From assembly GCA_041648335.1 (NCBI GenBank), contig JBAZPG010000001.1:31880-95879 (forward strand): a stretch of 64,000 nucleotides of DNA. The letters are read 5' to 3'. The notes below the pieces were generated by a model. That model had not been told where the DNA came from, did no database searches, and saw only the letters and a list, made by a program, of their open reading frames with translations. Shown here one piece after another: positions 29,842 through 63,049 of this stretch (positions are counted from its first letter, which is position 1; the number at the start of each line of letters is the position of its first letter). Source of the stretch: Candidatus Micrarchaeia archaeon (lineage in GTDB: Archaea; Micrarchaeota; Micrarchaeia; Norongarragalinales; Norongarragalinaceae). Position numbers and translations under genes: made by a program.

Positions 29842-29930
29842 TTCTATATAGAATAAGGTGTAAAGGAGATTTAACCCCCTCCATATAGTGGTTCGTTATA
29901 GAAACATATTTATATTAGTTCTATATAGAA
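29842..29930. promoter_or_regulatory. two copies of perfect 12-bp palindrome TTCTATATAGAA (29842-29853, 29919-29930) 77 bp apart upstream of a small ORF + DNA methyltransferase; operator/TATA-like
   Basis: read directly; each palindrome contains TATATA. Confidence 0.4.
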
Positions 29931-29935
29931 CACTT

Positions 29936-30106
29936 ATGGCTAAAATCGCCGAGTATATTGTTAAAATCTATTCTTCTAAAGACAAAAAGAAGCTCAAAGC
30001 AGGTTTGAAGGAATACGAATACGGAACAATCAACATTAGAGACCCCGGACTAAAAGAACACATAGGGGAAACCGTAACCGTCAAAGTCGAAAAGGCGAGA
30101 AAATGA
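29936..30106 (+). CDS. small basic protein (56 aa) preceding the methyltransferase, possible R-M controller/regulator
   Basis: MAKIAEYIVKIYSSKDKKKLKAGLKEYEYGTINIRDPGLKEHIGETVTVKVEKARK; AT-rich codon usage like the island. Confidence 0.35.
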   Translation: MAKIAEYIVKIYSSKDKKKLKAGLKEYEYGTINIRDPGLKEHIGETVTVKVEKARK

Positions 30107-30115
30107 AAACTAAAT

Positions 30116-31075
30116 TTGGATACTAGGGCTGCTAAATTGACTGTTAAAAGTTTAAAAAACGAAACGAAGAACACTAATACGCTTATTCCTAATCTTGCAA
30201 AAAACATAGACTACCTTAACACTCTACCTTCAAAAATAGCATCAATTTCAACCACCCACCGTTTGATTTTTGGCGATGCTAGAAACTTGTCTAAGATTGA
30301 AAATGAAACCGTACAATTAGTAGTAACCTCGCCACCATATTGGACTTTGAAAGAATACAACCAGATTGACGGTCAACTTGGGCACATCCAAGATTACGCT
30401 ATATTTCTTGAAGAACTCGATAAAATATGGACCGAATGCTTTAGAGTGCTAATTCCGGGCGGTCGTCTGATCATAGTGGTTGGAGATGTTTGTTTAAGCA
30501 GAAAAAAACACGGTCGACACCAAGTTATTCCTCTTCATGCAGATATTCAGACCCGCTGTCGTAACATTGGTTTCGATAATCTTGCGTCAATTATTTGGCA
30601 TAAGATTGCTAATGCAAAATATGAAGTCAAAGGTAATGGAAAAGGCTTTTTAGGTAAACCCTATGAACCAAACGCCATAATCAAGAATGATGTTGAATTC
30701 ATTCTTATGGAGAGAAAGCCAGGTGGATATCGCAAACCAACTGATAAAACGAGACTACTTAGTCTTATTCCACAAGAAAAATACAAGATTTGGTTTACTC
30801 AAGTTTGGGAAGGAGTTCGTGGCGCGTCTACGAAGGTGCACCCTGCACCGTTTCCAGAAGAATTAGCAGATAGACTAATCCGAATGTATAGTTTTGTTGG
30901 TGATACTGTATTAGATCCATTCTTAGGAACGGGCACCACTACCGTAGCTGCACTTAAATCTGGCAGAAATAGTCTTGGCGTAGAACTTGATCCCAAATAC
31001 CTCGAATTAGCAAAAAAACGGATTAATGCCACGATTTCTGAATCTAACGCAAATGCAACGTTGTTACTAGAATAG
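30116..31075 (+). CDS. DNA methyltransferase, beta-class amino-MTase (N4-cytosine or N6-adenine; SPPY motif IV before FxGxG motif I)
   Basis: LVVTSPPYW ... VLDPFLGTGTT. Confidence 0.8.
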   Translation: MDTRAAKLTVKSLKNETKNTNTLIPNLAKNIDYLNTLPSKIASISTTHRLIFGDARNLSKIENETVQLVVTSPPYWTLKEYNQIDGQLGHIQDYAIFLEELDKIWTECFRVLIPGGRLIIVVGDVCLSRKKHGRHQVIPLHADIQTRCRNIGFDNLASIIWHKIANAKYEVKGNGKGFLGKPYEPNAIIKNDVEFILMERKPGGYRKPTDKTRLLSLIPQEKYKIWFTQVWEGVRGASTKVHPAPFPEELADRLIRMYSFVGDTVLDPFLGTGTTTVAALKSGRNSLGVELDPKYLELAKKRINATISESNANATLLLE

Positions 31076-31110
31076 GCTTAGTTTTAAACGAGTTTGTTTT
31101 TCGTATTAGC

Positions 31111-31836
31111 ATGCCTATAACCGGCGATAGTTGTATAGCCGAATACTTACAAACACATCAATATCACCCGCGTTCAGATGCGCATGGAAACGAATTGGCG
31201 CGACTTATTGTTAAAGACTTAATGGAAAACTGCAAAGTGTTTAGAGAAGCAGCTTTATCGAAGCGCATTGTATTCGAATTGAATTATACTATCGGAAATG
31301 GTTTTGATAGCTGGAATATGGATTTAGTGGTCGGACCCCCAGAAAACCTCAACAAAATAGAAAAAACAGATTTAAATATTTTTAGAGGAATACCGAAAGA
31401 AATTTGGTTGGCTATTGATGCTAAATCAATTATGACTGAGCATAAGAAAGCGAGAAGAAATCGACAACGAGACCTTAATTCACTACAAGATTTATTACAT
31501 AGAAAGAATTCTAACACAATAGTAGCGGGAATCGTCGTAGTAAATATGTCCAAGAAATTTAAGTCTCCATTGAGGAACGGAGAGATAACTTTACATCCAA
31601 ATGTAGAAAATACCATAACCGAAACAATAGAGATGCTAAAACAAAATTTAAAGCAAGGAAATAACGAAAATGGGCTTGAGGCGTTAGGGGTAATTGTGGT
31701 AGATCATACTAATTTAGTTGATGACCAAACTAAGCTAATTGCTACGCCCCCTGCGCCTTCTTCATCTGACCGAATATTCTATAAAAACTTCATAACCGAA
31801 CTTTGTACTCTTTTTTCAGATAGACATGGGCAATAA
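31111..31836 (+). CDS. putative type II restriction endonuclease (PD-(D/E)xK-like D...DAK)
   Basis: follows MTase by 35 nt; MDLVVG...WLAIDAKS candidate catalytic motif. Confidence 0.45.
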   Translation: MPITGDSCIAEYLQTHQYHPRSDAHGNELARLIVKDLMENCKVFREAALSKRIVFELNYTIGNGFDSWNMDLVVGPPENLNKIEKTDLNIFRGIPKEIWLAIDAKSIMTEHKKARRNRQRDLNSLQDLLHRKNSNTIVAGIVVVNMSKKFKSPLRNGEITLHPNVENTITETIEMLKQNLKQGNNENGLEALGVIVVDHTNLVDDQTKLIATPPAPSSSDRIFYKNFITELCTLFSDRHGQ

Positions 31837-31900
31837 GGAACAAGGGGCTACGCTACTTTTTTTTTAAATATGCGAAAACAATAAAAGATATATGCTTTTC

Positions 31901-32815
31901 TTAGCTTATTTGCGGAGGCAGTTGGCTCAGCAAGCTATTATTTAGATATGATGCGGTAACCAAGCCCGGTATACCTGCAAACGAATCAATCATTCCAATA
32001 ACTTTGTCGGTAGTGGGGTTTATCACCGGACCCCCACTATTACCAAAAGTTACTGCCGCATCTTCTATAGCAAACGTTGGACTTAACGGCGTATTCCAAA
32101 AGTTTGAATTATTGTGAGCTATAGTCCCTACGTTAGCTACTTGTTCAAAAAGTCCATTTGGAGTCTGGGTTACGCCTAACGGATATCCAATAAACGCAAT
32201 ACGCATTCCTTTTGGAATTGAATAACTTTCTGATAAGGTCACGGCGGGCATGTTTACCGTTGCCTTAAGTATTATTACATCGGTGCCGATTTTTAATCTA
32301 TAATCTTCAAATGAAAATCTGGTTCCATCGCGTTTAAACCCAGTTAAGTTCAAGTGAGTGAAATAAGACGTGGGTAAATCAACCATGTGAACCGCAGTAA
32401 TCAAATAACCATCATTTCGTATGATAAAACCGGCGCCTAACGGAACTGGGCGACCTTGAGAATCAGTACCAAACAATTCTATTGTTGATTCAGATAAACT
32501 AGCAATAGATTGGGTTAATGCGGACTCGTTTTGAAGTTCGTTTACTGAATAATTTACGCTATTAATTTGTGTAACGAGTGCAGCCGTAGTATTCGTTTCT
32601 GCTTTCGTTGCTAATTGAAGTTGCATACCTTGAAAACCGGATTGTATTTGCCCGTTAAGCGAAAGATAAGCTCCCACTCCTAACGCCAAAACAACCAAAA
32701 ATCCGGCTACTACCCACCCCGCGTTCATAACTAAAGTTGTTGGGTTATCTCGTATAATAATAACCACTTTTCCGTCAATTGACGGCATTTTGCGGGGTTT
32801 GTTTGGCTTGCTCAT
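31901..32815 (-). CDS. membrane-anchored trypsin-like (S1) serine protease
   Basis: TAVHMV (His), GNSGGPV (Ser) motifs; N-terminal TM helix. Confidence 0.7.
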   Translation of the reverse strand: MSKPNKPRKMPSIDGKVVIIIRDNPTTLVMNAGWVVAGFLVVLALGVGAYLSLNGQIQSGFQGMQLQLATKAETNTTAALVTQINSVNYSVNELQNESALTQSIASLSESTIELFGTDSQGRPVPLGAGFIIRNDGYLITAVHMVDLPTSYFTHLNLTGFKRDGTRFSFEDYRLKIGTDVIILKATVNMPAVTLSESYSIPKGMRIAFIGYPLGVTQTPNGLFEQVANVGTIAHNNSNFWNTPLSPTFAIEDAAVTFGNSGGPVINPTTDKVIGMIDSFAGIPGLVTASYLNNSLLSQLPPQIS

Positions 32816-32922
32816 TTTAGCTCGCCCCCGGGACTTTTTGAGCAGTTTTCAGACATTTTTAGCAACTCCAACTTTTTTAGCAAAGCCACCTAAAGGAAAA
32901 CCGTTAAATTCCCCACGTTTTT

Positions 32923-34050
32923 ATGCTCAGAGGAGGGTGTTGCATTTTGAAGAAAATCTTTTTGCTGTTGACCGCGTGTTTCCTGTTGGCGGGTTGCATT
33001 GAAAGCGAACCGGAACCCTCGTGGGTTCCCGAAACCGGGGTTACGCCCTCGCCGGCAATCGAACCCACGCCGTCGCCTTCGCCAACGGCGAACGCCACGC
33101 CCTCGGTTTTACCGTCGCCCACCATTGCTGCGACGCCGTCGCCGAGCCCGTCGCCTTCACCCGAACCCAGCGAGATGCCCTCGTGCTCCATCACATTACA
33201 ATCGCTTGGAACCGCGCAGAAACGCGTAATCGTCTCGTTCGTGAACATCCTGGAGAACGAAGCCGAAATACGGTGCTCACCCGTCTCGGCATGGCACGAA
33301 TTCGATTTGAACGCCCAGAAAACAGGATACTACGACTGCCAGTACGTCCAAAACGCCACGTCGTTCACTTACACGGCGACCGCGCGCGCGGGAACCGTGG
33401 AATGCCAAGTCGCGATAATCATCGACGCGTCCTCTTACTCGTACGAATGGACGGTCACGCCCTCGAGCGACGCGTTCACGATTGAGAAAACCGTTGGCAA
33501 CACCACGACGCGTTCGTACTCGCTCAACAACACGGGCACCGGAACGCTTGCGAGCGTTAACGCAACGTCCAGCCAAACTTGGGCAACGCTTTCCTCGATT
33601 TCGTCGAGCGTCTCGCCAGCGGCAGTTGGAAGCGCAGGATTCCTGTTCAACGCCGCAAGCTTGAGCGTTGGCACGCACACGGCTACGTTAACATTCTCGG
33701 CGGCTAACGCAGCGAACAAGACGGTTGCGGTAACGCTCACGGTTACGGAAACCGCCACACTCGTGCCGTCGTGCACCACCGCGTCCGCGAGCCCGGCAAC
33801 CGTGAACACCACCGCGGGACCGAACACCTCGGTGATAACAATGAACTACCTTGGTTTCGCGGGAGTGTTAACGCCAGTATTCTCCTGCGGCTTCGGAATC
33901 GCGCCTGTTGGCGCCTGCGGGCTCACGCCCGCCGGCTCGTGCACCGCCACGTGCGATTACGCGGGCGCGCCCGTTGCGGCTTACGCTGCGACGAGCAGCT
34001 TGAACGGAACCGTGTGCTCGGGAAGCGTTGCGGTCACCGTACAGAATTGA
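32923..34050 (+). CDS. secreted Cys-rich protein, lipoprotein-like signal (..LLAGC), PSPSP linker, C-terminal copy of the Cys-rich module seen in the giant surface protein
   Basis: MKKIFLLLTACFLLAGCIES; C-terminal FSCGFGIAPVGACGLTPAGSCTATCDYAGAP.. Confidence 0.65.
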   Translation: MLRGGCCILKKIFLLLTACFLLAGCIESEPEPSWVPETGVTPSPAIEPTPSPSPTANATPSVLPSPTIAATPSPSPSPSPEPSEMPSCSITLQSLGTAQKRVIVSFVNILENEAEIRCSPVSAWHEFDLNAQKTGYYDCQYVQNATSFTYTATARAGTVECQVAIIIDASSYSYEWTVTPSSDAFTIEKTVGNTTTRSYSLNNTGTGTLASVNATSSQTWATLSSISSSVSPAAVGSAGFLFNAASLSVGTHTATLTFSAANAANKTVAVTLTVTETATLVPSCTTASASPATVNTTAGPNTSVITMNYLGFAGVLTPVFSCGFGIAPVGACGLTPAGSCTATCDYAGAPVAAYAATSSLNGTVCSGSVAVTVQN

Positions 34051-36537: not shown

Positions 36538-36656
36538 AGCGGACAGCGGTCATAGGAGAGGGGCATACGCTCGTTCCCGTTCCGAACACGAAAGCAAAGC
36601 CCTCTTACGACTTCGCGAGTACTGTCTTATGACGGGAAAGCGGGTTGCTGCTGCCA
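36538..36656 (+). rRNA. rrf: 5S ribosomal RNA (stand-alone)
   Basis: CGGUCAUAG...GGGG.CAUAC...UUCCGAAC.CGAAAG..AAGCCC...GAGUACUG... collinear with archaeal 5S; ends uncertain by a few nt. Confidence 0.7.
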
Positions 36657-51399: not shown

Positions 51400-52950
51400 T
51401 CAACCACGAAACGCAGCAGAAAATATTAAACTTGCGCTAATGACGATTAAACGCCAAAACCGCGCGTAAGCCCTGTAAAAGCACTGCTAGGGCCTGAAAA
51501 ACCAGCAAACCACAACCTGCAGCACACCAGTTCATTTCAAGCAGAACTACACCTAGGAAAACAAGGAAAAAATCAAAAAACCGGAAAAACCAAGTAAAAC
51601 AAAACGAAAAATTCAGCAAAAAACCAAACACTAACTAGGTTTTTTCATTAACCGCGTTTTTTGGCTCATTTTGAAAACCGACAAATAGTGGAACAAACCG
51701 AATTCCTTAAAACTACCATTTTGGTGTTTTGAAGCCAAAAATAACAACCGAATGTGCGCATCCAGACCGGCAATAAACCGGGCAAAACACAACAAAACCG
51801 AACGAACACAAAATACCATAATAGTATAAACCGCACGCAGAAAAAAGTGTTCGGAACACCATTTAGATGTAGCGAAACTACGGTTTAAGCCAAAAAGCCG
51901 GTTTTTAACGCAGAAATTCGTTTTGAGCCCGACCCAGTGGCTGCTTTTTGTCCCTAAATACCATAGAAATGCAACGAAAGCACACCTGCGGACCGGAGCA
52001 AACGCCAGGCGTTCCCATCAAAACAGTGTTCTCAAAATACCCGCGCACCATAATGGTATGCTGCGCCTCGCGAAAATATTCAACAAAAAGCCGGTTTGCA
52101 AAACCAATGCTCAGGCGTACGTAAACGCCGCACAAAAAACAGTAAAAAAAGCCCGGCAAAAACGAAAAAGAACACAAAGGGGCGGTTCAACGCGGGATGA
52201 ACTAAGCGCGGCTTTTCTTCAATCCGCTTAGGAAAGCCCGCTGTTTTTTGTTGTGTTGCGCCAAAACAAAGCCGATCGCCTCGTCCACACTCACGAAAAA
52301 CCCGAGCCGGGCCTGGAGCTCGCCGGCCAGGATTGCCAAATCCCTATACGTTTCTCCCCGAACGCGAATAACCTTGTCCAAAACAATTTCACCACTATAA
52401 CAAAGTATACAATAGCTATTTAATAGTTATTGTTACACGGTAAAAACGCGCTTGCCCGCGGCTCGGCTTTTTACCGGGCGCCCTCGGAATTTTCCAGTCC
52501 CAGAAAAACTGGGAAATGGGAAAAACGCCAAAAAACCACTGGAAAAAACCAGTGAAAACTGCTAAAAAAGGAAAAATCAAGTGGTTCAAGACAAAAAACG
52601 TGTTTGGTCCGGGGCTAAAACCGAATCCGGAAAACGAAAAATACCGCAACCCCCTGAAAAAATACCGTACGCCGTTGGCTTTGGATGAAAAAACGCTTTG
52701 AAAATGAAAAACCGGTTGGCGCGGCGGGCAATCAAACCGAATTTTGGTGCGAAAACGCGTTAAAACAAAAAACCGAGTGGGTACGCGGGTTTTTCGCATT
52801 GGAAACACTGCAAAAACGAAAAAACGGATTGGATCCGTGGTTTTTTGCCAGGAGGAAAACAAAAAACGCATTGAAAAAACAAAAACCGATTTGAAACAGG
52901 AAAAAACCGTTTGAAAAACGCGAAAAAACCGGCTTTTTTGAAAAACACGT
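51400..52950. other. about 1.55 kb ORF-free, A-rich (plus strand), GC-poor region with phased A5-6 tracts and several A-tract/T-tract-flanked hairpins; function unknown (curved DNA / ncRNA / origin-like?)
   Basis: no credible ORF in six frames; recurring AAAAAACCG / GAAAAAAC motifs; see finding. Confidence 0.6.
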
Positions 52951-53017
52951 GCGGGTGCGCGTTTTACGGGCGCGCATTAAAAAATCAAGCAGCGGAAAAC
53001 AAGAAAGGGCTTTAAAA

Positions 53018-55747
53018 ATGCAGGGTTTACGCAAGGAAGTTGTCGCGGTTGCGCGCGCCAAGGGCTTCGACGACTACACCCCCATCCAGAAAAAGGCCTC
53101 GCCCCGCATCCTCGCGGGGGAAAACCTGTTGGTCACTGCGCCCACGGGCTTCGGGAAAACCGAGGCAGCCATGCTCCCGGTGCTATCGCGCATGCTCGAC
53201 TTTAAGGATAAAGGGCAGCTGGCAGGCATTTGCACGCTTTATATCACACCTTTAAAAAGCCTTAACCGGGACATGCTGGAGCGCCTGACGTTCTGGGGCA
53301 AGGTGCTCGGGTTCGGGGTTGCGGTGCGGCACGGGGACACCAAGCCGAGTGAGAGGCAGAAGCAGCGGGACGCTCCGCCGCACCTCTTGGTTACGACGCC
53401 GGAGACCCTGCAATCCCTGCTCGTTGCGCCCAAGCTCAAGGACGCGCTCGCGAACGTGCGGTTCGTAATCGTGGACGAGGTGCACGAGCTCGCGGACTCC
53501 GAGCGGGGCGTCCAGCTCGCGGCAGGGTTGGCGCGCCTGCGTCTCAAGGCGCCGGGATTCCAAATCATAGGCTTGAGCGCGACCGTGCGGAACAAGGAGG
53601 CGGTCGCGCGCTTCCTGGCGCCCGACTGCGGGGTGGCGGAGCAAGAGCTCGGACGCCTGCTGGACATCCGCGTCGAGCTTCCGGACGGCGGGCGTCCCGA
53701 GTTCAAGGAACTGGGGTTGCGCGACGAAAGCAAGGCAGCGCTTGGGTTGGTGGTCGACTCCATCGAATCCAGCAAGAGGACTCTTGTTTTCGTGAACACG
53801 CGCTTCACGGCTGAGAGCCTGGGACATTTGCTTTCACAGACGCGCGTCGCCAATCAAATTGCAGTGCATCATTCGAGCCTGGCAAAAGAGGCGCGTTTGG
53901 AGGCTGAGGAGGAGTTCAAGCGCGAGGCAAGCAGCCTCAAGGCGATCGTGTGCACTTCTTCGCTCGAACTGGGCATTGACATAGGCGCGGTGGACTTGGT
54001 GGTGCAGTTCAACTCGCCGCGCCAAGTGTCCCGGCTGGTGCAGCGCATAGGCCGGAGCGGGCACCGCAAGAACCTCGTGCCAAAAGGAGTGATAATCGCG
54101 GGCGGGGAGCTGGACTGCCTCGAGGCGCTCGTCTTGAGGGAGAAGGCGCTCGCCGGGGAAATCGAGGAAACCCGCATCCGCTCGAACGCCCTCGACGTTG
54201 CCGGACACCAGCTCGCCGGGCTCGCGTTGGATTACGGGAGCATCACGCTGGCGGACGCGCTCGGGATACTGCGCACGGCGAAGCCGTTCGAAACGCTTTC
54301 ACCCGCTGCCCTCGAGGCAGTCGCGAGGCAGATGGCGCAGGCGAAGTGTTTCGCGTTCGACGGCGAACGCGTCACGGCGTCCAAGCGCACCCTGCTTTAC
54401 TACTACGAGAATTTGGGCACCATACGCGACTCCAAGAAGCGTTGGATACGGGACGCGGTCACCCGCAAGAACGTGGGGTTGCTGGACGAGGCGTTCGTTT
54501 CGGAATATTTGCAGGAGGGCGTCACGTTCATTACGCGCGGGAAAGCCTGGCGGGTGATAAGCGCGGAAGAGGAAATCCAAGTCGAACCCTCTTCGGACTT
54601 GACCGCCGCGATTCCCGAATGGGTGGGTGAAGAGATACCGGTGACCGCGGAAGTCGCGACCGCGGTTGAGGACGCGTTCGCCCGCCTCCCGGAATGCGAC
54701 GCGAAGCTGGGGAAAAAACTCGCGGCGTACGCCAAGGAACAGGCGGGCTTCTTCACACCCTCGAGGGAAAAGTGCTTTGTGGAGGGCGGGGACCGCTGGA
54801 CGGTGGTGCACTCGTTCTGGGGCTCGAAGGCGAACGAGGCGCTTGCGCGCGCGCTGGCGTTCCACTTCGCGTTGACGCGCCGCGAGTCGGTGCGCACGAA
54901 AGCCGGGGCGTACGGCGTGCTCCTCGAGTTCGACAAACACAAACCAGCGGCGGACGTGTGCGCGGCGCTCGACGTTCTCAAAAAGGGGCGCGACGCCCGG
55001 ACGCTCCTGGAAACGCGCCTCCCGGATACGCGCATCTACCGCCGCAAGCTCATAGGCGTCGCCAAGGCAATGGGGCTCGTCTCGAAAACCGCGGACCTGC
55101 AGGAGTTCGGCTTGGCGCGCCTGGCGCGCGCCTTCAAGGGGACGCCCGCGGAGAGCGAGGCGCTTGCGGAAGTGTGGTTCGACGAGCTCGACGCGGACGG
55201 GATGGAGGCGGCGTTGCGGAGGACGCGTTTTGAAACCGTCCCGTTCCGCGAGTCAGCTTCCCCGCTTGCCGCGGAGTTCTTCGATTACGGTTCGTTCAGC
55301 GAACTCATCGTGCCCGGCGCTCCCTCGGAGAAGCTCGTGCAGGCGTTCCGCGACAACCTACTCGAGAAACGCGAGGGGCTGTACTGCCAGTACTGCGGGA
55401 AAACGCACACGCTTTCCCTGGGTGAGGCACCCGAAGAATTGCGTTGCCCGTACTGCAAGTCCAGCCAGCTCACCCGCAAGCGTTACAAGGCCGTGCTCGA
55501 AAAGCGCAAGGCGCGCCGCAAACTAACCGAAGAGGAAACAAAGGAATTGAATGACGCCTACCGTTCCGCGAACCTGCTTTCGGTGAACGGGCGCCGCGCG
55601 CTGCACGCGTTGAACACTTTCGGCGTTGGCCCCGAGACCGCCGCGCGCCTCCTGGGCCGGGCACCCTCGGATGACGCGGGATTCTACGGGGCGCTCCTCG
55701 AGGCGCAGAAGAATTTCATCAAGACCCGTCGCTTTTGGCGGGTTTGA
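53018..55747 (+). CDS. lhr: Lhr-type ATP-dependent DExH helicase with C-terminal zinc ribbon
   Basis: TAPTGFGKTEAA (motif I), DEVHEL (DExH), SAT, helicase C; CQYCG...CPYCK; ATG 53018 follows TTTAAAAA. Confidence 0.8.
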   Translation: MQGLRKEVVAVARAKGFDDYTPIQKKASPRILAGENLLVTAPTGFGKTEAAMLPVLSRMLDFKDKGQLAGICTLYITPLKSLNRDMLERLTFWGKVLGFGVAVRHGDTKPSERQKQRDAPPHLLVTTPETLQSLLVAPKLKDALANVRFVIVDEVHELADSERGVQLAAGLARLRLKAPGFQIIGLSATVRNKEAVARFLAPDCGVAEQELGRLLDIRVELPDGGRPEFKELGLRDESKAALGLVVDSIESSKRTLVFVNTRFTAESLGHLLSQTRVANQIAVHHSSLAKEARLEAEEEFKREASSLKAIVCTSSLELGIDIGAVDLVVQFNSPRQVSRLVQRIGRSGHRKNLVPKGVIIAGGELDCLEALVLREKALAGEIEETRIRSNALDVAGHQLAGLALDYGSITLADALGILRTAKPFETLSPAALEAVARQMAQAKCFAFDGERVTASKRTLLYYYENLGTIRDSKKRWIRDAVTRKNVGLLDEAFVSEYLQEGVTFITRGKAWRVISAEEEIQVEPSSDLTAAIPEWVGEEIPVTAEVATAVEDAFARLPECDAKLGKKLAAYAKEQAGFFTPSREKCFVEGGDRWTVVHSFWGSKANEALARALAFHFALTRRESVRTKAGAYGVLLEFDKHKPAADVCAALDVLKKGRDARTLLETRLPDTRIYRRKLIGVAKAMGLVSKTADLQEFGLARLARAFKGTPAESEALAEVWFDELDADGMEAALRRTRFETVPFRESASPLAAEFFDYGSFSELIVPGAPSEKLVQAFRDNLLEKREGLYCQYCGKTHTLSLGEAPEELRCPYCKSSQLTRKRYKAVLEKRKARRKLTEEETKELNDAYRSANLLSVNGRRALHALNTFGVGPETAARLLGRAPSDDAGFYGALLEAQKNFIKTRRFWRV

Positions 55748-55834
55748 CTTCCTCGAGAAAAACATATTCTTCGGGGGAAGGCGGCGCGCGCTCCTCGAAC
55801 ACCGGCTCTTTCGCTTCCACGACGCGGGGTTTCT

Positions 55835-56308
55835 TCATTTCACAACTATCCTCGGCTTCGCGGGCTTGACGGGAGCATAAAGCGCGTCCGGGTTCGAGAG
55901 GAAGTACGCTGCGGCCTCCTTGTTCAGCGGGTCCGCGGGGTTCGGGTTCGCGAGCAAATGGCGAAGGCTCTTCACGAGTGCGAGCACGGTCTGGTTCTCA
56001 GCCCAGTCGTTCAAGAGCTGGATGCACACCTTGCCATCCGCCTCGCGGATGTTAGGGTGGAAAATGGGGGTGAGCCAGGTTACGTCGATGCCGCCGGGAT
56101 AGGGGTAGCCGCGCAGGAGCTCGATTTTCACGCTGTGGCTGTCGCGCTGGAAGATGCGTCCGGACTCGCGGTAGAGTGCCGGACCCTTCAGGCTCACCAC
56201 GTACTCGGTGAGCTCGGCGTTGGATTCGAAGCGCTCCCCGCTCTCCTGCAATTCCTCGAACTCGCTTTCGAGGCGGCGGCGCCAAATCGGTTCGGGAAGG
56301 GAAGACAA
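55835..56308 (-). CDS. ubiquitin-conjugating enzyme E2 (UBC fold)
   Basis: HPNIREADGKVCIQLLNDWAENQTVLALVKSLRHLLANPNPADP is the canonical UBC active-site signature (HPN...G.IC...L...W.P). Confidence 0.85.
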   Translation of the reverse strand: MSSLPEPIWRRRLESEFEELQESGERFESNAELTEYVVSLKGPALYRESGRIFQRDSHSVKIELLRGYPYPGGIDVTWLTPIFHPNIREADGKVCIQLLNDWAENQTVLALVKSLRHLLANPNPADPLNKEAAAYFLSNPDALYAPVKPAKPRIVVK

Positions 56309-56339
56309 AACGCAGACCTCTTGTTTTGGCGGTTAAACC

Positions 56340-56582
56340 CTAACCGCCCGTCGGGTCGGGCAAGAGCGTGAGCTGGTCCCCTTCCTTTACGCCCGCGTCC
56401 GCGAGGGTGAGCTCGGGGTCGAGTATCTGATTGTTCTTGGAGGCGAGGACGAACCGGTCCTTGAGTTTCAGGTTCTCGGTGAGGACCTCGAGCACGGAGG
56501 CGACCGTAAAGCCGGCTTCGACCGCGACAACGATTTCCTTTCCGGACGTGCTTTGTATTATCGTGATATTGAATTCAACCAT
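56340..56582 (-). CDS. ubiquitin-like beta-grasp protein ending in -GG (80 aa)
   Basis: MVEFNITIIQSTSGKEIVVAVEAG...GDQLTLLPDPTGG-stop; parallels Ub (TLTGKTITLEV...LHLVLRLRGG); the longer ORF-track frame upstream of this ATG is not credible. Confidence 0.8.
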   Translation of the reverse strand: MVEFNITIIQSTSGKEIVVAVEAGFTVASVLEVLTENLKLKDRFVLASKNNQILDPELTLADAGVKEGDQLTLLPDPTGG

Positions 56583-56639
56583 GTGTGCATCGCCCCCTTG
56601 GCGGTTTATTATTAAATCAAGGGTATAAATGTTTTCGGT

Positions 56640-56990
56640 ATGGCGGACGAAGACGGGTTCACTGAAATCGGTTTCCCCGAAGGGGCGGACAACGAAGCGG
56701 GCAAGGACGCGGACAAGCCCGCGGAAGCAGTGAGGAAGCCGCGCATCCTCGAGCCGGCCCCGAGCAAGCCCGCAATCGTTTCGGTAACCCGCCCAACCGA
56801 AATGCCCGAAGTCGCGAGGCACTGGGCAACGCGGGACATCGAACCCATGGAACGCATACCCGCGCCCGCGCAGCTCGAGGGCGAATCGCGGGAGGCGCTC
56901 GTGGAGAACGCGTTGCGTTTGCACGAGGCGCGCGAAGCAGAGAAACCCAAGGGTTTTCTCTCAAGGTTGAAGGGCGCATTTTTCAAGTGA
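56640..56990 (+). CDS. hypothetical acidic/Pro-rich protein, first gene of the JAMM-RING operon
   Basis: 116 aa; 7 nt before the JAMM gene; no motif. Confidence 0.45.
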   Translation: MADEDGFTEIGFPEGADNEAGKDADKPAEAVRKPRILEPAPSKPAIVSVTRPTEMPEVARHWATRDIEPMERIPAPAQLEGESREALVENALRLHEAREAEKPKGFLSRLKGAFFK

Positions 56991-56996
56991 CTTGAC

Positions 56997-57434
56997 ATGT
57001 TCGAGGTTTACTTTGACGCGGAGGCAATGGCTGCAGCCGTACGCGAGTTCGAAGCCGCAGCCGGGCGCGGACGCGAGGGAATCGGGTTCTTCCTAGGGAA
57101 GGTTTACTCCTGGCAGGGCGGCTTGTTCGTGCGCGCAACCGAATTCGTTACCGGTGAAAGCGACGCCACCGCGGTATCGGTGCGGTTCGCGGAGGGCGCG
57201 TTTGCGGGAATCGCGGGCGCGCGGGGGGACGACTTGATAGCGATTTGGGCGCACTCGCATCCGGATTACGGCTGCTTCATGTCCGAACGCGATTTGGAGA
57301 CGCACGAGAATTATTTCGCTAACGACTACAATTACGCACTCGTGGTGGACCCGGTGCGGCGCGAGAAGAAGCTGTTCAAGGTGCGGGACGGGAAATGCCT
57401 CGAGGCATCGTTCGCAGTAGTGGAGAAGAAGTAA
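56997..57434 (+). CDS. JAMM/MPN+ metalloprotease (Rpn11-like deubiquitylase/isopeptidase)
   Basis: E..(30)..HSHPDYGCFMSERD = ExnHxHx7Sx2D JAMM motif. Confidence 0.85.
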   Translation: MFEVYFDAEAMAAAVREFEAAAGRGREGIGFFLGKVYSWQGGLFVRATEFVTGESDATAVSVRFAEGAFAGIAGARGDDLIAIWAHSHPDYGCFMSERDLETHENYFANDYNYALVVDPVRREKKLFKVRDGKCLEASFAVVEKK

Positions 57435-57435
57435 A

Positions 57436-58161
57436 ATGGCTAAACCGAAACTCAAGGCGTTCGACAAGGCGGTCTTTGACGTAATCCGCGCGGGAGTCTA
57501 CCGCACCGAGCACATCGCCTCGAAACTCCACGTGGACGAAGCGGCGCTCAAAGTGCGTTTGGGCGAACTCGCAGTTGCGGGTCTCGTCGTGGTGGATGGG
57601 GAGGGTGTGCGCCTGGGAATCGAGGGGTTCAACGCCTATCCCGCGGCGAAGAAGCGCGCGAAGAAAACAAAGGAAAACGAAAACTCGGCAATCGTTCAAT
57701 TGAAAACCGAGCCAGCTGTTGCGTCGGTTGAACCAGCGAAAACCGAGTCCATCAAACCTGCACCAGTTGCGTTAAAACCAATTGAACCCGAGGCGTTGCC
57801 CGCGCCGGTTACCATGAGCGACTTGCACGAACTCCTCAAACTCGGGGCGCCCACGGGAAGCGCGCGGCAGCCGAACGCGCAGAAAGAAGAGCCGCCGCTG
57901 GTGAAGACCGAGGCGCGTCCGTTGACTAAGGGCGGAGACGAAGTTTGCGAGTTGTGCAAGGGGCGCTTCGCGCTCGCGGTGAAAGGCAAGGGGCACCCCA
58001 AGTTCGGGCACTGCTTCTGCGGGGCAGCCTACCACAAGGACTGCTACGAGGCACTCATTAACGACACGAAGAAGTGCGTGCGTTGCGGGCGCAAGCTCGA
58101 ATTATACCTGGACCGCCGGAGCGAGGAAGCCGTGCACGCCATCCGCGGCGTGTTCGACTGA
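57436..58161 (+). CDS. wHTH + RING/PHD-type (C4HC3) zinc-finger protein, candidate E3 ubiquitin ligase
   Basis: C-terminal CELCx18CFCx4HKDCx10CVRC; N-terminal MarR-like wHTH; Pro/Ala linker. Confidence 0.75.
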   Translation: MAKPKLKAFDKAVFDVIRAGVYRTEHIASKLHVDEAALKVRLGELAVAGLVVVDGEGVRLGIEGFNAYPAAKKRAKKTKENENSAIVQLKTEPAVASVEPAKTESIKPAPVALKPIEPEALPAPVTMSDLHELLKLGAPTGSARQPNAQKEEPPLVKTEARPLTKGGDEVCELCKGRFALAVKGKGHPKFGHCFCGAAYHKDCYEALINDTKKCVRCGRKLELYLDRRSEEAVHAIRGVFD

Positions 58162-58167
58162 AGCAAA

Positions 58168-58917
58168 TTAAACATGCACGGGGCAGCCCTTGCGCTTCGG
58201 GATTCCGTAGAGCGTGAAGCGCGCGTTCAACCCGTCGTAGTAAAGCGATTTCCCGGCGAACGACTCGCGCCCGTGCACGAGCTTGGCGAACTCCGTGGAC
58301 TGTATGCCCGCGATTACGCTCGTGGTGGATGGGAGCGCGGGCATCTTGGGGTCCAGGAAGTCGAGCGCGTCCCCAGTGCACGCGTACTTCTTCCAGAGGA
58401 GCTTGTAGTCGCGGCGGCTCAAGGCGCATTCGAAGCACGACGACGGAGCGTTCACCACGCTCACCCGCCCGTTGAACCCGGTGGTGCCGCCGTCGATGAC
58501 GGGCGCCTTAGCGTAGCACTGCGCGTTCAAGTGGAGGCGCGCCCCCACGTTGTCCAGACAGCCGAACGCGTAGTCCGCCGAGGAAAAAACCGCCTCGTCC
58601 AAGTGCTCCACCCGCTTGAGGATGACGCGCACGCGGGCGTCCGGGTTAATGCGCGTCGCCTCGCGGGCGATTACCTCGGCTTTCTTTCGCCCCACGTCGG
58701 CGTGCGTGAAGAAGCAGCAGCGGTTCAGGTTCGCCGTGACTATTTCGTCGTAGTCCACGAGCGTGATTTCGCGGACGCCGAACTGGAGGAGGTTCTTGAC
58801 GAGTTCGTTGCCGAGCGCGCCCGCGCCAACTACCAGGCAGCGCGCCTTCGAGACCGCGTCCTGGTTCCAACCGTCCACGCGCTTTTGGCGGTCGTACGCG
58901 TCGTCGTCTATTCCCAT
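58168..58917 (-). CDS. E1-like ubiquitin-activating enzyme (ThiF/MoeB/UBA fold)
   Basis: YDRQ..., LVVGAGALGNELVKNL, DYDEIVTANLNR, CFEC zinc motif. Confidence 0.85.
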   Translation of the reverse strand: MGIDDDAYDRQKRVDGWNQDAVSKARCLVVGAGALGNELVKNLLQFGVREITLVDYDEIVTANLNRCCFFTHADVGRKKAEVIAREATRINPDARVRVILKRVEHLDEAVFSSADYAFGCLDNVGARLHLNAQCYAKAPVIDGGTTGFNGRVSVVNAPSSCFECALSRRDYKLLWKKYACTGDALDFLDPKMPALPSTTSVIAGIQSTEFAKLVHGRESFAGKSLYYDGLNARFTLYGIPKRKGCPVHV

Positions 58918-58995: not shown

Positions 58996-59784
58996 TTAGC
59001 GTTTGCGGTATACGAAATCAACGCCGCCTTTGCGGGATTCTCGAACGGCCGGTTCTAATCCAAAGGCACTGATTTCATGAAGGGCTAGCTTCGAATCCAC
59101 CAAAAGGTATCCTTTTGGCGCTACTGCGGCTGCAATGGAAGATAAGATTGCTTCGCGTTGTGTTTCGGAGGTATAATGACGGAGCACGTTTAACGAAACC
59201 ACGAGGTTGGGCTGACCGCGCCCCACGGGCAACTCGCGGAGGGCGTTCCCCTTGTAGAAACTTATTTTTTCGAGCACGCTTGGCGGCGGGGTTATGGAAA
59301 CAATCCGGATGGGGTTGCCGTCGACCATGCGCTTCACGTAAGGAATGCGCACGCGTTTCACGGATGGGAAAAAATTGTGGAGATAAAGGGTATAACTTGG
59401 AAAAGCTGTTTTGATTAGTTCGTGTGCGAGCACGGGCTGGGTTTTCTCGGGATGCTGGTACGCATAATCGATGACGCTCACACGGTAATCTGCACCAACG
59501 TTTTCGAGTTGGTTCGCGACTTCGAATGGTTCGGGTGGAAGGTGTTGCCCGCGCAATATTTCGGAATTGGGCGCCCCGCAACCGATTATGAGTGCGTTCA
59601 CCTTTTCATTCCTAGCGAATAATCGGGAAATCATACTCAAGAGTAAGTAACTCCTGCCGAAGCGAGTGTGCGTCGACGTCAGCTTGCCGTCGTACAACGC
59701 CATGTGTTCGCGCCAGGCGATTGCCGCAGCATACTTTTCGGGGCCAGGCATGCTGGGGCGCGCCTTACGCATTTGCACAGCCAT
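58996..59784 (-). CDS. hypothetical protein, possible class I SAM-dependent methyltransferase (..ALIIGCGAP..)
   Basis: weak motif I; AT-richer than surroundings; start chosen at MAVQMRKARP. Confidence 0.35.
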   Translation of the reverse strand: MAVQMRKARPSMPGPEKYAAAIAWREHMALYDGKLTSTHTRFGRSYLLLSMISRLFARNEKVNALIIGCGAPNSEILRGQHLPPEPFEVANQLENVGADYRVSVIDYAYQHPEKTQPVLAHELIKTAFPSYTLYLHNFFPSVKRVRIPYVKRMVDGNPIRIVSITPPPSVLEKISFYKGNALRELPVGRGQPNLVVSLNVLRHYTSETQREAILSSIAAAVAPKGYLLVDSKLALHEISAFGLEPAVRESRKGGVDFVYRKR

Positions 59785-59818
59785 GCGACTTTTATTGAAG
59801 CCCGAATTTAAAGTTGTT

Positions 59819-60535
59819 ATGCCCACGATAGTTTACTCGGAGAAGGATGCTGCGGGAAGCAACATCGCGCGCTTCCTGAACTGCAAGGCGGTGCACCTCA
59901 AGGAAGAGCTCGTGGACTGCAGCCGCGACTTCGGCTCGGACTTGGTGTTGTTCGCCTCGCGCCACGCGAGCGTTTCGGGTGCGCCCTGCCTCGCCGTGCA
60001 CTGCACGGGAAACTGGGGCGCCGCTGGAAAAGGCGGGGCGCCGAGGACGCTTTCGCTGGCAAGCGCACGCGCCTCGAAGTGCGCGCTCGACTGGCTCAAG
60101 GCACACCCACTCAAGGGTTTCGACGTATTCCTGGAAGCAACCCACCACGGGCCGACCCACTTGTCCGCACCCTCGCTGTTCATAGAGGCGGGGAGCACGC
60201 CGAAAGAATGGGCGAATGAGGCGGCAGCCAAGCGCGTAGCCGAGTGCATTGAATTCGTGCGCGACAACTGGACTTCCACGACGGGGACGGTGGCGTTGGG
60301 TTTCGGGGGCGGGCACTACTGCCCGGCGTTCAACTCCCTCAACTACGCGTTCTCGCACATTGCCGCGAAATACGCTCTCGAAAGCGTGGACGAAATCATG
60401 CTGCGCCAGGCAATTGAAAAAACCGTGGAACCCGTGGAGTGCGCGGTAATCGACTGGAAGGGCTGCCGCGCCGCGGAACGCGAACGCGTAACGAAGGCGT
60501 GTGCTGCGAACGGCTTGGACATCGTGCGCGTTTAG
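59819..60535 (+). CDS. dtdA: archaeal-type D-aminoacyl-tRNA deacylase (DtdA)
   Basis: FASRHAS...HCTGNWG..GG, EATHHGPT, GGGHY, VIDWKG all match the DtdA family. Confidence 0.8.
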   Translation: MPTIVYSEKDAAGSNIARFLNCKAVHLKEELVDCSRDFGSDLVLFASRHASVSGAPCLAVHCTGNWGAAGKGGAPRTLSLASARASKCALDWLKAHPLKGFDVFLEATHHGPTHLSAPSLFIEAGSTPKEWANEAAAKRVAECIEFVRDNWTSTTGTVALGFGGGHYCPAFNSLNYAFSHIAAKYALESVDEIMLRQAIEKTVEPVECAVIDWKGCRAAERERVTKACAANGLDIVRV

Positions 60536-61692
60536 TAGTCGTAAAGTTTGCGCTGCTTGAGCACCACGCTGCGCGCGAGGTACTGCGCGAGTGGACGCTT
60601 GAGGCGCGTGGAAACATCGGCGAGCGCCTCGTTCAACGACTGAAATGAGCGGGCGGGTTTCTCGAATGCCTTGCGCACGCTTTCTCTGACCTGCCAGACA
60701 CCGACCGGCAGGCGGTAGCCCTCGTAAATCTCGCGGAAGACAATGGCGCGCGCCTGTTTCCCGAGGCGGGCGAGTCCCTCGGCAACCGCAAGCCGTCCGG
60801 CGTAATAGCCGCCGCCTTCCTCATCCGCGTAATCGCTCCGTCCCCCGTAGGGTTCGTACTCGTGGGCTACCGCGCTCTCGCCGGGGGACCAGAGCGAACC
60901 CTGCCACCACGCTTCGAACTGCTCGAACTCCCAAGGACCCGGAAGCAGGAGTATTTCGTAGTGGTTGTAGAGGTATTCGTTCGAGTACACGAGGTAGTCG
61001 CCGACCATTGGAGAATCCTTTACTTTCGTTAGGTGCTCGTCGCCCACCATGCGGTCGGTTGCGGTAATCGCCCAACGCGTGGGCACCAGTTTTTTCTCGG
61101 CGCCGAGGATGCCCGCGCTCAACAGTTTCTGGAGGTAGTAGTATTCGAAGCCGCCCGCAAGCAGCTCGGAAACCGCCGCGCGCGCCTTCACTTTCTCTTC
61201 CGCGAGCTCGTCCACCTTAGAGGGCACGCACGGGTTCGTAGTCAAACGCAGGGAATCCATTTCCCCCGAGGGGCCGACCGGCTGCATCACGTCCGAGAAA
61301 TTCACGTGGAGGGAGGGCTCGCGTGCGAAGTGCGCCTCCATTCCCACGGTTTTCACGGACATCGCTGCGTCCCGCAGTTCCCCGAGCGAGAACGGGTCGC
61401 GCACGCTCGCGGTCTTGGTGCCGCGCACGAGCCCCTCGCGCGAGGCGATTATTCCGTCGAAATCCATCCCGTAAAGCTTGGAAGGATCGTCCACGGTTGC
61501 GGGGGAAACCGAAATCAGGGGCCCCGCGAAAACACGCGGGTAGCCGTGCCAGCCCACGAACATGTTCGGGGGGCTGTCGCCCGCGACGTCGCGCCCCAAA
61601 CGGAAACCCGAGGCAACGCGCGACTTCTCGAGGATGGGGCATTTAGCCAACCCGCAGAGCAGGCGGCCTTTGCATTGCAGGCACGACACCAT
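60532..61692 (-). CDS. nreA: NreA-family protein (archaeal Nre DNA-repair-associated), N-terminal zinc ribbon
   Basis: MVSCLQCKGRLLCGLAKCPI N-terminus typical of Nre; about 385 aa. Confidence 0.6.
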   Translation of the reverse strand: MVSCLQCKGRLLCGLAKCPILEKSRVASGFRLGRDVAGDSPPNMFVGWHGYPRVFAGPLISVSPATVDDPSKLYGMDFDGIIASREGLVRGTKTASVRDPFSLGELRDAAMSVKTVGMEAHFAREPSLHVNFSDVMQPVGPSGEMDSLRLTTNPCVPSKVDELAEEKVKARAAVSELLAGGFEYYYLQKLLSAGILGAEKKLVPTRWAITATDRMVGDEHLTKVKDSPMVGDYLVYSNEYLYNHYEILLLPGPWEFEQFEAWWQGSLWSPGESAVAHEYEPYGGRSDYADEEGGGYYAGRLAVAEGLARLGKQARAIVFREIYEGYRLPVGVWQVRESVRKAFEKPARSFQSLNEALADVSTRLKRPLAQYLARSVVLKQRKLYDY

Positions 61693-61897
61693 TTGGGAAC
61701 GCAGGGCTTTGCACAAGACAAAATAAAACCTTGCCGAACCAAGCATGTCTTTTACGGCATCTCTTACAACCCATAAATGTCGCTTAAACACCACTTACGG
61801 CTGTGTGGAGGCGTCTTTTATAAGAGACGAATGGCACATAAGTGCAGCTTACGAAAGCAGAAAGCCTTTTATATGCCTCGGATGTTGTTTTTGACGT

Positions 61898-63049
61898 ATG
61901 GTGGAAGTGTTCGAAGCTCGCGTGAAGCTTTTGCAGGAGCTGGGTTGGAGTGAGAACCCGTTCGTGAAGGACTTGCGCGCAAGCGACCGCGACTCATTCT
62001 TGAAGTATTACTGCCCGTTCGAGGGCGCGAAGATTCTCGAGCGCCTGGCGTTCGAGTCGAAAGCATGCCTGTTGTTCGGGCCCAAGGGCGTTGGAAAAAC
62101 GTCCGCGCTCTATTACGTGAGTTACGGTTTGCCGGAATCCGAGTTCGATTGCGTTTTCCTGAAGGAGCCGCCGAAGTCGCTTGATGATTTAGCCGAGGCG
62201 TTCAACTGCAAGCCGTCGGAGAACTGGATTTCGCGGCTGCTCGGCGGGAAGCCAGCGAAGGTTACCCGGAAGGGGCTCGCGGATTGCCTGAAACGCAGGA
62301 GCAAGAAAATCGTGTTGTTCGTGGACGAGGCGCACCTGGTTGAGGATAAGTCCATGTACATGGAGTTCAAGTATCTGTTGGACGACGTGCCGCGCCTGCG
62401 CATGGTTTTCTCCGCGTTGGGAAAAGCGGATTTTCCGGACTCGCTCCTCCAGCTAGTTGGCGAATCGAACTGTTTCCAGCGCCGCGAATTCTCCGAACAG
62501 GAGATGCGGCGCATCATCGAGCACCGCATCGCCGCGGTGGGCGGCAAGGGCTTGAAGCCGTTCCCGGACGCGTTCCTCTCGGACGCGCTCAAGGGGCAGA
62601 ATCTCCTGTCGCCGCGTTATGTTTTCGACGAGTTGAACGCTTTCCTCGCGAAGCTCGCGTTGGGGAAGAGCGAGTGGAAGGGTGCGGTGGAATACGCGGA
62701 CAACCCTATAATCCAGAGCGCCATCCGGGGCGCGCGGGGCGAGACGCTCGCAAAGGGGAACGCTGCGTGGTGGAACCAGTTGAGTCCGTCCCAACGCCAG
62801 ATTCTCGAGTTGCTCGTGCGCAAGGGCGAGGGCGTTGTTTTGAGCGACATACGCAAGGAAACGGGTTTGAGCCAGAACACCGCTTTCAACGCGCTCTACC
62901 AGTTGCGCGGGGACGACAAGGCGGAGTTGAAGCGCAAGCCGGGCGTGCCGTTCCCGCTCGTGCGCGTGGAAGCGCAGATGGTGGGCGGGCGCAAGAGGAA
63001 TGTTTACGTTGCGGTGGAAAAGGTCCGCAACTTGTTCACGTTGCATTAG
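61898..63049 (+). CDS. AAA+ ATPase with C-terminal winged helix (divergent Orc1/Cdc6-like or related)
   Basis: Walker A LLFGPKGVGKTS, Walker B LFVDEAH, C-terminal wH QRQILELLVRKGEGVVLSDIRKETGLS. Confidence 0.45.
   Translation: MVEVFEARVKLLQELGWSENPFVKDLRASDRDSFLKYYCPFEGAKILERLAFESKACLLFGPKGVGKTSALYYVSYGLPESEFDCVFLKEPPKSLDDLAEAFNCKPSENWISRLLGGKPAKVTRKGLADCLKRRSKKIVLFVDEAHLVEDKSMYMEFKYLLDDVPRLRMVFSALGKADFPDSLLQLVGESNCFQRREFSEQEMRRIIEHRIAAVGGKGLKPFPDAFLSDALKGQNLLSPRYVFDELNAFLAKLALGKSEWKGAVEYADNPIIQSAIRGARGETLAKGNAAWWNQLSPSQRQILELLVRKGEGVVLSDIRKETGLSQNTAFNALYQLRGDDKAELKRKPGVPFPLVRVEAQMVGGRKRNVYVAVEKVRNLFTLH

Follow-up and report, generated by a model that had tools for sequence, protein, structure and literature searches.

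The 64,000-nucleotide stretch of archaeal DNA analysed here (the window) lies on a 533,585-bp metagenome contig (ENA) of a Micrarchaeota archaeon belonging to the DPANN group, and carries between positions 55719 and 58917 a compact gene cluster that probably constitutes a working ubiquitin-like protein-conjugation cassette. Sequence comparisons and structural modelling establish the identities of a ubiquitin-like protein (Ubl), an activating enzyme (E1), a conjugating enzyme (E2) and a JAMM-type metalloprotease, the presence of intact predicted catalytic residues, and the conservation of the cluster as a whole. A candidate ligase (E3) or adaptor, in which a winged helix-turn-helix (wHTH) is fused to a zinc module, and two further small proteins, orf116 and orf39, complete the set. 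The original prediction, made from the sequence and its open reading frames (ORFs), that this archaeon encodes a Ubl-E1-E2-JAMM conjugation module is borne out by Pfam, NCBIfam, PDB and Foldseek comparisons, which argue against a sulfur-carrier system; the seven ORFs and the motifs that it described are all found in the ORF list and the sequence at the positions it gave them.

An E2 peptide pattern scanned against a species-representative genome set (one genome per species) returned 237 E2 relatives, the best 80 of which were kept as loci. The top 41 of these 80 come from Micrarchaeota species genomes, and the others mostly from Thermoplasmata and Methanomassiliicoccales, with a few from Asgard archaea, Bathyarchaeota and Desulfurococcales and one from an actinobacterium. 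The close homologues all belong to metagenome-assembled genomes (MAGs) of Micrarchaeota/Norongarragalinales, and the NCBI annotation of the contig's proteins is to Candidatus Micrarchaeia. The spread of the 237 relatives across Micrarchaeota, Thermoplasmata, Asgard archaea, Bathyarchaeota and Desulfurococcales contradicts the earlier statement that operons of this kind are known from very few archaeal lineages. The whole arrangement is found again in the majority of the 41 species genomes of Micrarchaeota, in the order E1(+) / zinc-module protein(-), JAMM(-), gap ORF(-) / Ubl(+), E2(+), small ORF(+), with almost no exceptions, the gap ORF being the one between the JAMM and Ubl genes. Such an arrangement lies far beyond chance, and since the same gene order recurs in most of these genomes, the cluster is core-genome content of Micrarchaeota and no oddity of one contig. 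Identity across the lineage is highest for the Ubl (60-78%), the most conserved part, followed by the E2 (44-71%) and the zinc-module protein (~30-55%).

Core components of the probable cassette

The modifier gene (56340-56582, minus strand) encodes an 80-aa protein that ends in ...LLPDPTGG, directly followed by a TAG stop codon, in agreement with the earlier claim that the Ubl is encoded in mature -GG form. The segments LKDRFV and PDPTGG are invariant in the orthologues, and the Gly-Gly pair is the exact C-terminal end in most of them, with 1-27 extra residues in a minority. The Pfam matches are weak and mixed among beta-grasp families (YukD, ThiS, Rad60-SLD and ubiquitin). The AlphaFold2 (AF2) model, built from 42 orthologues, adopts a beta-grasp fold with a predicted local distance difference test score (pLDDT) of 84.7, and its top Foldseek matches in the PDB are SUMO-2/3, SUMO-1, ubiquitin (template-modelling (TM) score 0.86), NEDD8 and ISG15, with no ThiS or MoaD among the top 50. 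The Caldiarchaeum ubiquitin (6fno_D) also ranks among these top matches, with a TM score of 0.85 at 27% identity. The product is a beta-grasp protein of the ubiquitin/SUMO type with a C-terminal Gly-Gly.

The E2 gene (55835-56308, minus strand, 157 aa) starts with TTG preceded by AAGAGGT, and its product contains FHPNIREADGKVCIQLLNDW. It matches Pfam UQ_con at 2.7e-18 (66.4 bits against a cutoff of 27), and its best PDB sequence match is human UBE2H (3.5e-16, 63 bits), in which the HPN motif and the catalytic cysteine are aligned. No substitution of H84, P85, N86 or C95 is seen in any of 42 Micrarchaeota sequences or of 19 diverse homologues. These matches identify the protein as a bona fide UBC-family member, with the HPN motif at residues 84-86 and Cys95 as the predicted catalytic residue, and some orthologues are already named 'ubiquitin-conjugating enzyme E2' in public annotation. 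The nearest relatives outside Micrarchaeota are the Sigynarchaeum and Bathyarchaeota E2s (94-98 bits), as compared with a median of 64 bits for Thermoplasmata. By bit score the module is a mosaic, the E2 being nearest to Asgard and Bathyarchaeota proteins, and the E1, JAMM and Ubl nearest to operons of Thermoplasmata and Desulfurococcales with a short E1. The Sigynarchaeum (L043) and Bathyarchaeota (L044) E2s end in the acidic-hydrophobic tail DDDIL[VI]ID, which we take to resemble a classical SUMO-interaction motif (SIM); no E1, Ubl or JAMM gene was detected adjoining these two E2 genes.

The E1 (58168-58917, minus strand, 249 aa) matches Pfam ThiF at 3.1e-50 over residues 14-246, and its PDB sequence matches to the active adenylation domain of Uba1 (1e-28) and to E. 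coli ThiF (1e-23) are about equal. The GxGxxG and NLNR motifs are conserved, and in 34 Micrarchaeota orthologues C161/C164, C245/H248, C67 and C180 are invariant, with C120 near-invariant (0.97). The pairs C161/C164 and C245/H248 correspond to the usual structural zinc site, predicted to be formed by the crossover loop and the C-terminus. In an alignment with UBA3, 23 residues lie between the CxxC of the E1 and MPALPST; C180 is located inside this crossover loop, at the position where the ~80-aa Cys domain of UBA3 is inserted. C180 is a candidate thioester site because this loop position is presumably that of the reactive cysteine in MoeB, ThiF and UBA5. The orthologues measure 244-304 aa, apart from one call of 356 aa that is probably an over-extended ORF. 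A ubiquitin-fold domain (UFD) at the C-terminus, by which the E2 is recruited, is a trait of canonical E1s and of Clusters I/II (Hennell James et al, 2017, PMC5654768); it is missing from this 249-aa protein, as is a separate Cys domain, the ThiF domain covering residues 14-246. The earlier label 'eukaryote-type' does not fit the E1, which is a minimal ThiF-fold enzyme with neither domain.

The protease gene (56997-57434, plus strand) encodes a 145-aa Rpn11-like metalloprotease of the JAMM/MPN+ family that carries HSHPDYGCFMSERD. Its best PDB sequence match is Caldiarchaeum CsRpn11 (6fjv, 2.3e-7), followed by eukaryotic Rpn11, CSN5 and AMSH; archaeal JAMM structures do not outrank Rpn11 among these matches. 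All of the 39 Micrarchaeota and the 75 archaeal sequences compared retain E27, H86, H88, S96 and D99, giving the complete motif E...HxHx7Sx2D predicted for an Rpn11-type deubiquitinase. It had been claimed that this protease is a deconjugase and not a processing enzyme. For the Ubl encoded here, which ends at Gly-Gly, the claim is consistent with the sequence; since a minority of the orthologous Ubls extend 1-27 residues past Gly-Gly, the protease of those relatives is probably also precursor-processing, and at the family level it probably both matures precursors and deconjugates.

The Ubl-E2 unit is separated from the divergent orf116-JAMM-zinc-module unit by a 57-bp intergenic spacer (56583-56639) containing TTTATTATTAAA and GGGTATAAATG. 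Its A/T-rich boxes are suitably placed for two divergent putative archaeal promoters, which makes such a promoter pair plausible. In most orthologous loci an A/T-rich box is found 25-50 nt, and a GGTG-type Shine-Dalgarno sequence 5-10 nt, upstream of the Ubl start codon.

The winged-helix zinc-module protein

The third gene of the plus-strand unit (57436-58161) encodes a 241-aa protein composed of a wHTH, a linker and a C4HC3 zinc module (hereafter ZnF), which we consider a candidate E3 or adaptor; its start codon lies 1 nt past the JAMM stop codon. In the AF2 model of the full protein, obtained with a 41-sequence alignment, residues 1-70 form a winged helix (pLDDT 86-97) that is MarR/OhrR/DtxR-like according to Foldseek, and some family members match Pfam HTH_24, in accordance with the winged helix of the original prediction. 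The DNA-linked targets that were proposed earlier on account of this fusion are conceivable. The low-complexity linker has one conserved motif, DLxELLKxGAP (window 57817-57855, residues ~128-140), and AF2 places a short helix at residues 130-137, within the region of this motif.

In the 41 ZnF sequences C171, C174, C193, C195, H200, C203, C214 and C217 are invariant and H192 is near-invariant. The ligand spacing, C-x2-C-x18-C-x-C-x4-H-x2-C-x10-C-x2-C, gives eight Cys/His ligands in the C4HC3 order with the spacing of a cross-brace, in common with RING, PHD and Prok-RING_1 fingers; the second half has the spacing of the gp78/AMFR RING. The zinc module differs from a RING-H2 in that the canonical fourth-ligand histidine is Ala197, apparently replaced by Cys193, and it differs from RING, PHD and Prok-RING_1 fingers in general by its restriction to Micrarchaeota, its sub-gathering Pfam scores and its low-confidence fold. 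Weak Pfam matches in the family are to zf-RING_2 (34/41, best E 0.039) and Prok-RING_1 (22/41), with best E-values of 0.02-0.04, and the top PDB matches of the zinc-module profile are all RING E3s, namely AMFR/gp78 (0.021), then RCHY1, CWC24, RNF24 and RNF4. With hhalign, the zinc module matches a Desulfurococcales Prok-RING_1/PHD protein at 80.7% probability (E 1.3e-5), and the eight ligand positions align by eye; this 120-aa protein, encoded ~5.5 kb from the Ubl operon of that locus (L079 11963-12325, minus strand), passes the Pfam Prok-RING_1 and PHD cutoffs and has the CG..YH..C and C..CGRK core in common with the Micrarchaeota module. The same comparison with the small RING ORF of Helarchaeota found no similarity. 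Of the earlier label 'C4HC3 RING/PHD', the C4HC3 part stands as an invariant pattern, and the RING/PHD identity is a tentative one, to which these sub-threshold or indirect matches lend only indirect support.

Several observations weigh against the interpretation of the cluster as a working cassette with an E3. The zinc finger is modelled with a pLDDT of only 44-69, and because of this low confidence the Foldseek search with the full ZnF model yielded MarR-like matches only. No ZnF family member attains a Pfam gathering score, and a HMMER profile search of 1.84 billion representative proteins detected nothing related to the zinc module beyond the family itself, all its distant matches being to the winged helix. 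In addition, the Pfam Prok-JAB and JAB scores of the JAMM protein are slightly under the cutoff, and the E1 is devoid of the UFD, the E2 recruiter in canonical and Caldiarchaeum-type cascades.

Since the zinc finger is without relatives outside its family, ZnF could be a regulator instead of an E3, that is a wHTH transcription factor (a MarR-like repressor or activator with a structural or sensing zinc domain) that controls the divergent operons, the E2 conjugating directly or with other partners. We regard this as rather unlikely. It would agree with the generic MarR/OhrR/DtxR-type character of the DNA-binding N-terminal domain, with the location of the gene one gene downstream of the divergent promoter region, and with a zinc domain that is poorly modelled, has no Pfam match above cutoff and no significant relative outside the family. 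It accounts less well for the eight-ligand spacing, which is that of cross-brace RING/PHD modules, for zf-RING_2 being the commonest weak Pfam match and for RING E3s occupying all the top PDB profile matches, for the connection that hhalign makes with a Prok-RING_1/PHD protein encoded close to a Ubl operon of another archaeon, and for the co-conservation and translational coupling of ZnF with the JAMM gene in nearly every locus. An E3 role of ZnF is the probable one on these grounds.

The KPR[IV]V motif, the disordered proteins and the proposed mechanism

The ORF between the Ubl and JAMM genes, orf116 (56640-56990, plus strand), has no Pfam, NCBIfam or PADLOC match. An ORF of at least 100 aa is present at this position in 32 of the loci examined, including the contig of the window itself; these gap ORFs are of low complexity and 105-440 aa long. 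Their common motifs are KPR[IV]V near the N-terminus, often in two copies, [DE]YS[LM]L and EQAxRDxxP, and the C-terminal tail is basic/aromatic (KKGF[FL]xKLKxxLGF). The orf116 product displays RKPRIL, HWATRDIEP and KPKGFLSRLKGAFFK. The family consists of positionally conserved, length-variable proteins that are predicted to be disordered.

A second motif-bearing ORF, of 35-56 aa, lies directly downstream of the E2 gene in 25 of 42 loci. In the window this is orf39 (55719-55838, minus strand), which overlaps the E2 stop codon in an ATGA. The consensus of an 18-member alignment is MKKPRIVxVKExxxEEREPPSExxYEFVE, and a few members share the C-terminal tail of the gap ORFs. Its conservation and position identify orf39 as a real microprotein, predicted to be translationally coupled to the E2, that combines KPR[IV]V with an acidic segment, PPS...Y/F-x-F. 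The E2 itself bears KPRIV in its C-terminal tail; the strict motif is found in 29/42 E2s and close variants such as GPR[IV][IV] in most of the others, and the E2 tails of Thermoplasmata carry P[RK]VV or RRIRIVG.

The frequency of the motif in the gap ORFs is 36 occurrences of KPR[IV]V in 6,206 residues (5.8/1000), as compared with 9 in 200,639 residues of six-frame ORFs taken as background (0.045/1000), which corresponds to a ~130-fold enrichment. Six matches occur in the six-frame translation of the window, three of them within the module, and the KPR[IV][IVL] sites are located in orf39 (55719-55838), the E2 tail (55838-55860) and orf116 (56730-56745), as well as in loci L002-L042. The sequence [IV][IV]x[IV] followed by acidic residues presumably resembles SIMs, and Y-x-x-[LV] after acidic residues, we assume, the LC3-interacting region/Atg8-interacting motif (LIR/AIM). 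We take the gap-ORF tail KKGF[FL]xKLKxxLGF (window 56950-56990; L002-L039) to resemble the membrane-targeting sequence of MinD; its mean hydrophobic moment is 0.55 against 0.40 for the control, in a test in which the MinD tail itself scores low. We infer that KPR[IV]V may serve the E2 and the two disordered families as a common strand for docking on the Ubl or on the E1 that has no UFD.

Taken together, these features suggest the following mechanism for the cassette. The 80-aa Ubl would need no processing, its Gly-Gly end being free from the outset, and the minimal ThiF-type E1, probably a homodimer, would adenylate this end with ATP. The E1 would then take up the Ubl as a thioester on Cys180 of the crossover loop and hand it to Cys95 of the UBC-type E2, which would discharge it onto lysines of target proteins, probably aided by the wHTH-C4HC3 protein as a RING-like adaptor. 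The Rpn11-like JAMM protease would take the tag off and, in relatives with an extended Ubl, would also mature the precursor. The orf116 family, the orf39 family and the E2 tail may dock via the strand-type KPR[IV]V motif on one partner, either the Ubl, in a SIM-like manner, or the E1 devoid of a UFD.

It can also be hypothesised, though we hold this to be doubtful in its entirety, that Micrarchaeota, and possibly an ancestor of the lineage within DPANN, possess a self-contained, vertically inherited Ubl system in which a C-terminal KPR[IV]V strand couples the UFD-less E1 to the UBC E2. The same motif would be reused by two disordered proteins, at least one family of which has a MinD-like, possibly membrane-tethering tail, and a DNA-binding winged helix would have been fused to a lineage-specific RING-like module. 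If true, the cascade would be organised by short linear motifs and not by domain accretion in E1 and E3, and ubiquitin-type signalling with dedicated adaptors would be older than, or would have arisen outside, the Asgard/TACK-eukaryote line.

Relation to known systems and genomic context

A Ub/E1/E2/srfp(RING)/Rpn11 operon was described in Caldiarchaeum subterraneum (Nunoura et al, 2011, PMC3082918), its cascade was reconstituted (Hennell James et al, 2017, PMC5654768), the structures of its protease and ubiquitin were determined (Fuchs et al, 2018, PMC6043591), and the wider archaeal toolkit has been surveyed (PMC4327156). The Micrarchaeota cluster resembles that of Caldiarchaeum in uniting an identical set of five functional roles at a single compact locus, the E3 role being a candidate one here, and in having the protease gene transcribed apart from the Ubl-E2 unit; CsRpn11 is the best solved relative of the JAMM protein, the Ubl model superposes on CsUb, and the E2 is a true UQ_con member. 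The two systems differ in that CsUb is a precursor with 9 extra residues whereas the Ubl here ends at Gly-Gly, and in that the Caldiarchaeum E1 is described with Cys and C-terminal ubiquitin-like domains, neither of which is present in the 249-aa E1. Furthermore, the Caldiarchaeum E3 is a small stand-alone RING-H2, whereas the candidate of the window joins a C4HC3 module to a winged helix via a long linker; no KPR[IV]V disordered partners are described there, and the host is a TACK archaeon as opposed to a DPANN one.

The likeness to the Asgard clusters, exemplified by Helarchaeota (L070: small RING ORF - Ub - E2 - E1), lies in the UBC-type E2 and the RING-like partner, the Sigynarchaeum E2, with that of Bathyarchaeota, being the most similar to the E2 of the window after Micrarchaeota (94-98 bits). 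Unlike the module described here, the Asgard clusters have a longer E1 (358 aa in L070), which reaches only 110 bits against the E1 of the window, no JAMM or Ubl similarity is found at E<=1e-3, and the Helarchaeota RING ORF has no profile similarity to the zinc module. Colinear E1-Ubl-E2-JAMM operons occur in MAGs of Thermoplasmata, Methanomassiliicoccales and Desulfurococcales (L045-L081). They have in common with the Micrarchaeota module a short UFD-less E1 (median 196 bits), a related JAMM (median 71 bits), a Ubl tail of the form I/M-PDP-x-GG (IPDPEGG; RPQGG in Desulfurococcales) and E2 tails in P[RK]VV or RRIRIVG. These operons are, in contrast, single co-directional four-gene units, none of which has a wHTH-zinc protein, a gap ORF or orf39, and the E2 of the window is less similar to theirs (median 64 bits) than to those of Asgard archaea and Bathyarchaeota. 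They look like a sister family of the Micrarchaeota module, and may correspond to the 'Cluster III' of Hennell James et al (2017).

Bacterial E1-E2-Ubl-JAB operons act in phage defence (PMC10557695), and it could be envisaged that the cluster likewise serves against viruses, as a Bil/CBASS/6E-type system in which the Ubl would be conjugated to proteins of the invading virus and not to those of the host. The Bil and CBASS Cap2/Cap3 systems indeed share with the Micrarchaeota module a minimal UFD-less E1, which in Bil systems can still work with an E2, a zinc site built from the crossover loop and the C-terminus, and an E2 accompanied by a JAB protease able to pre-process the Ubl (PMC10557695). 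The E1 matches the PADLOC E1-E2 and BilD models, and disordered, fast-evolving partner proteins would be compatible with an arms race. We nevertheless consider a defence function very improbable, as the matches of the E1 are confined to its generic Rossmann part and the Ubl, E2, JAMM and ZnF proteins match no PADLOC model, including those of BilA/B/C and Cap2/3, the E2 being a member of Pfam UQ_con. The context is not that of a variable defence island either; in most species genomes of Micrarchaeota the surrounding housekeeping genes (Lhr, DTD2, NreA) are the same, which denotes a core set and no mobile island. Ubl identity across the lineage is 60-78%, and a scan of viral contigs returned no close copies, only giant-virus E2s at 27-37% identity.

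The supposition of an ordinary ThiS/MoaD-ThiF/MoeB sulfur-carrier system, or of an E2-independent SAMP/UbaA/JAMM1 system with an incidental E2-like gene, has a very low probability and is rejected in view of NCBIfam cutoffs, fold matches and gene context: the weak Pfam ThiS (6.5e-5) and NCBIfam SAMP1/MoaD matches of the Ubl, the JGI name 'molybdopterin converting factor small subunit' given to some of its orthologues and the MoeB-like size of the E1, with its 1e-23 match to E. coli ThiF, are outweighed by equivalog scores far under cutoff (ThiF 103.7 vs 275, MoeB 90.5 vs 376, UbaA 85.6 vs 450, SAMP1 16.6 vs 60, moaD_arch 14.4 vs 49.5), by a Ubl model that is of the SUMO/ubiquitin and not of the ThiS/MoaD kind, by the co-conservation of an E2 with an intact active site and an Rpn11-like JAMM, and by a cluster and flanks devoid of MoaE, ThiG and rhodanese genes.

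In the interpretation that we favour, a ubiquitin-like conjugation cassette, the kind of system is already known, and six aspects set the Micrarchaeota version apart: its host in DPANN, an E1 of minimal size, a Ubl that needs no maturation, a lineage-restricted C4HC3 module joined to a winged helix, the divergent three-unit layout and the two motif-sharing disordered families. In the literature searched, among it two papers on Micrarchaeota genomics with MAGs in which the locus is present, the system is unreported in Micrarchaeota or DPANN, an earlier mention being possible. The archaeal origins of eukaryotic cell biology are traced with ubiquitin-type cascades as markers, where these possess a true UBC E2 together with an Rpn11-like protease; that literature discusses such cascades in Aigarchaeota, Asgard archaea and a small number of further lineages. 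DPANN archaea have small genomes, are often dependent on a host and hold a debated position in the archaeal tree. A strictly syntenic version in most Micrarchaeota species genomes places the cascade in DPANN, and bears on its age and spread. The module also offers a minimal test set (80-aa Ubl, 249-aa E1, 157-aa E2 and 145-aa protease) suited to the question of how a UFD-less E1 hands over to an E2, and the wHTH-zinc protein, the KPR[IV]V motif and the two disordered families provide concrete hypotheses on targeting before large E3 families.

The usual neighbours of the cluster in Micrarchaeota genomes are genes for an Lhr-type helicase, a D-aminoacyl-tRNA deacylase (DTD2), the DNA-repair protein NreA and an AAA_22 ATPase, located in the window at 52949-55747, 59666-60535, 60532-61794 and 61898-63049, respectively. 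These flanks may reflect a functional link to DNA repair, or mere conservation of gene order. Upstream of the Lhr helicase gene, positions 51400-52950 are gene-poor and strongly A-rich (AT skew up to 0.31), with many short repeats of the AAAAACC type and tandem repeats at 52856-52931; Rfam has no family match in this stretch. Further away, a low-GC island (28500-33000; 0.36-0.42 against ~0.60 elsewhere) comprises genes for a DNA methyltransferase with an SPPY motif (30116-31075), a 241-aa protein adjacent to it (31111-31836) and a 304-aa protein (31901-32815), and is probably a horizontally acquired restriction-modification island. Rfam also detects a 128-nt tRNA (11788-11915), missed by ARAGORN and presumed to contain an intron because of its length, and a stand-alone 5S rRNA gene (36542-36656), both of which are consistent with an archaeal genome.

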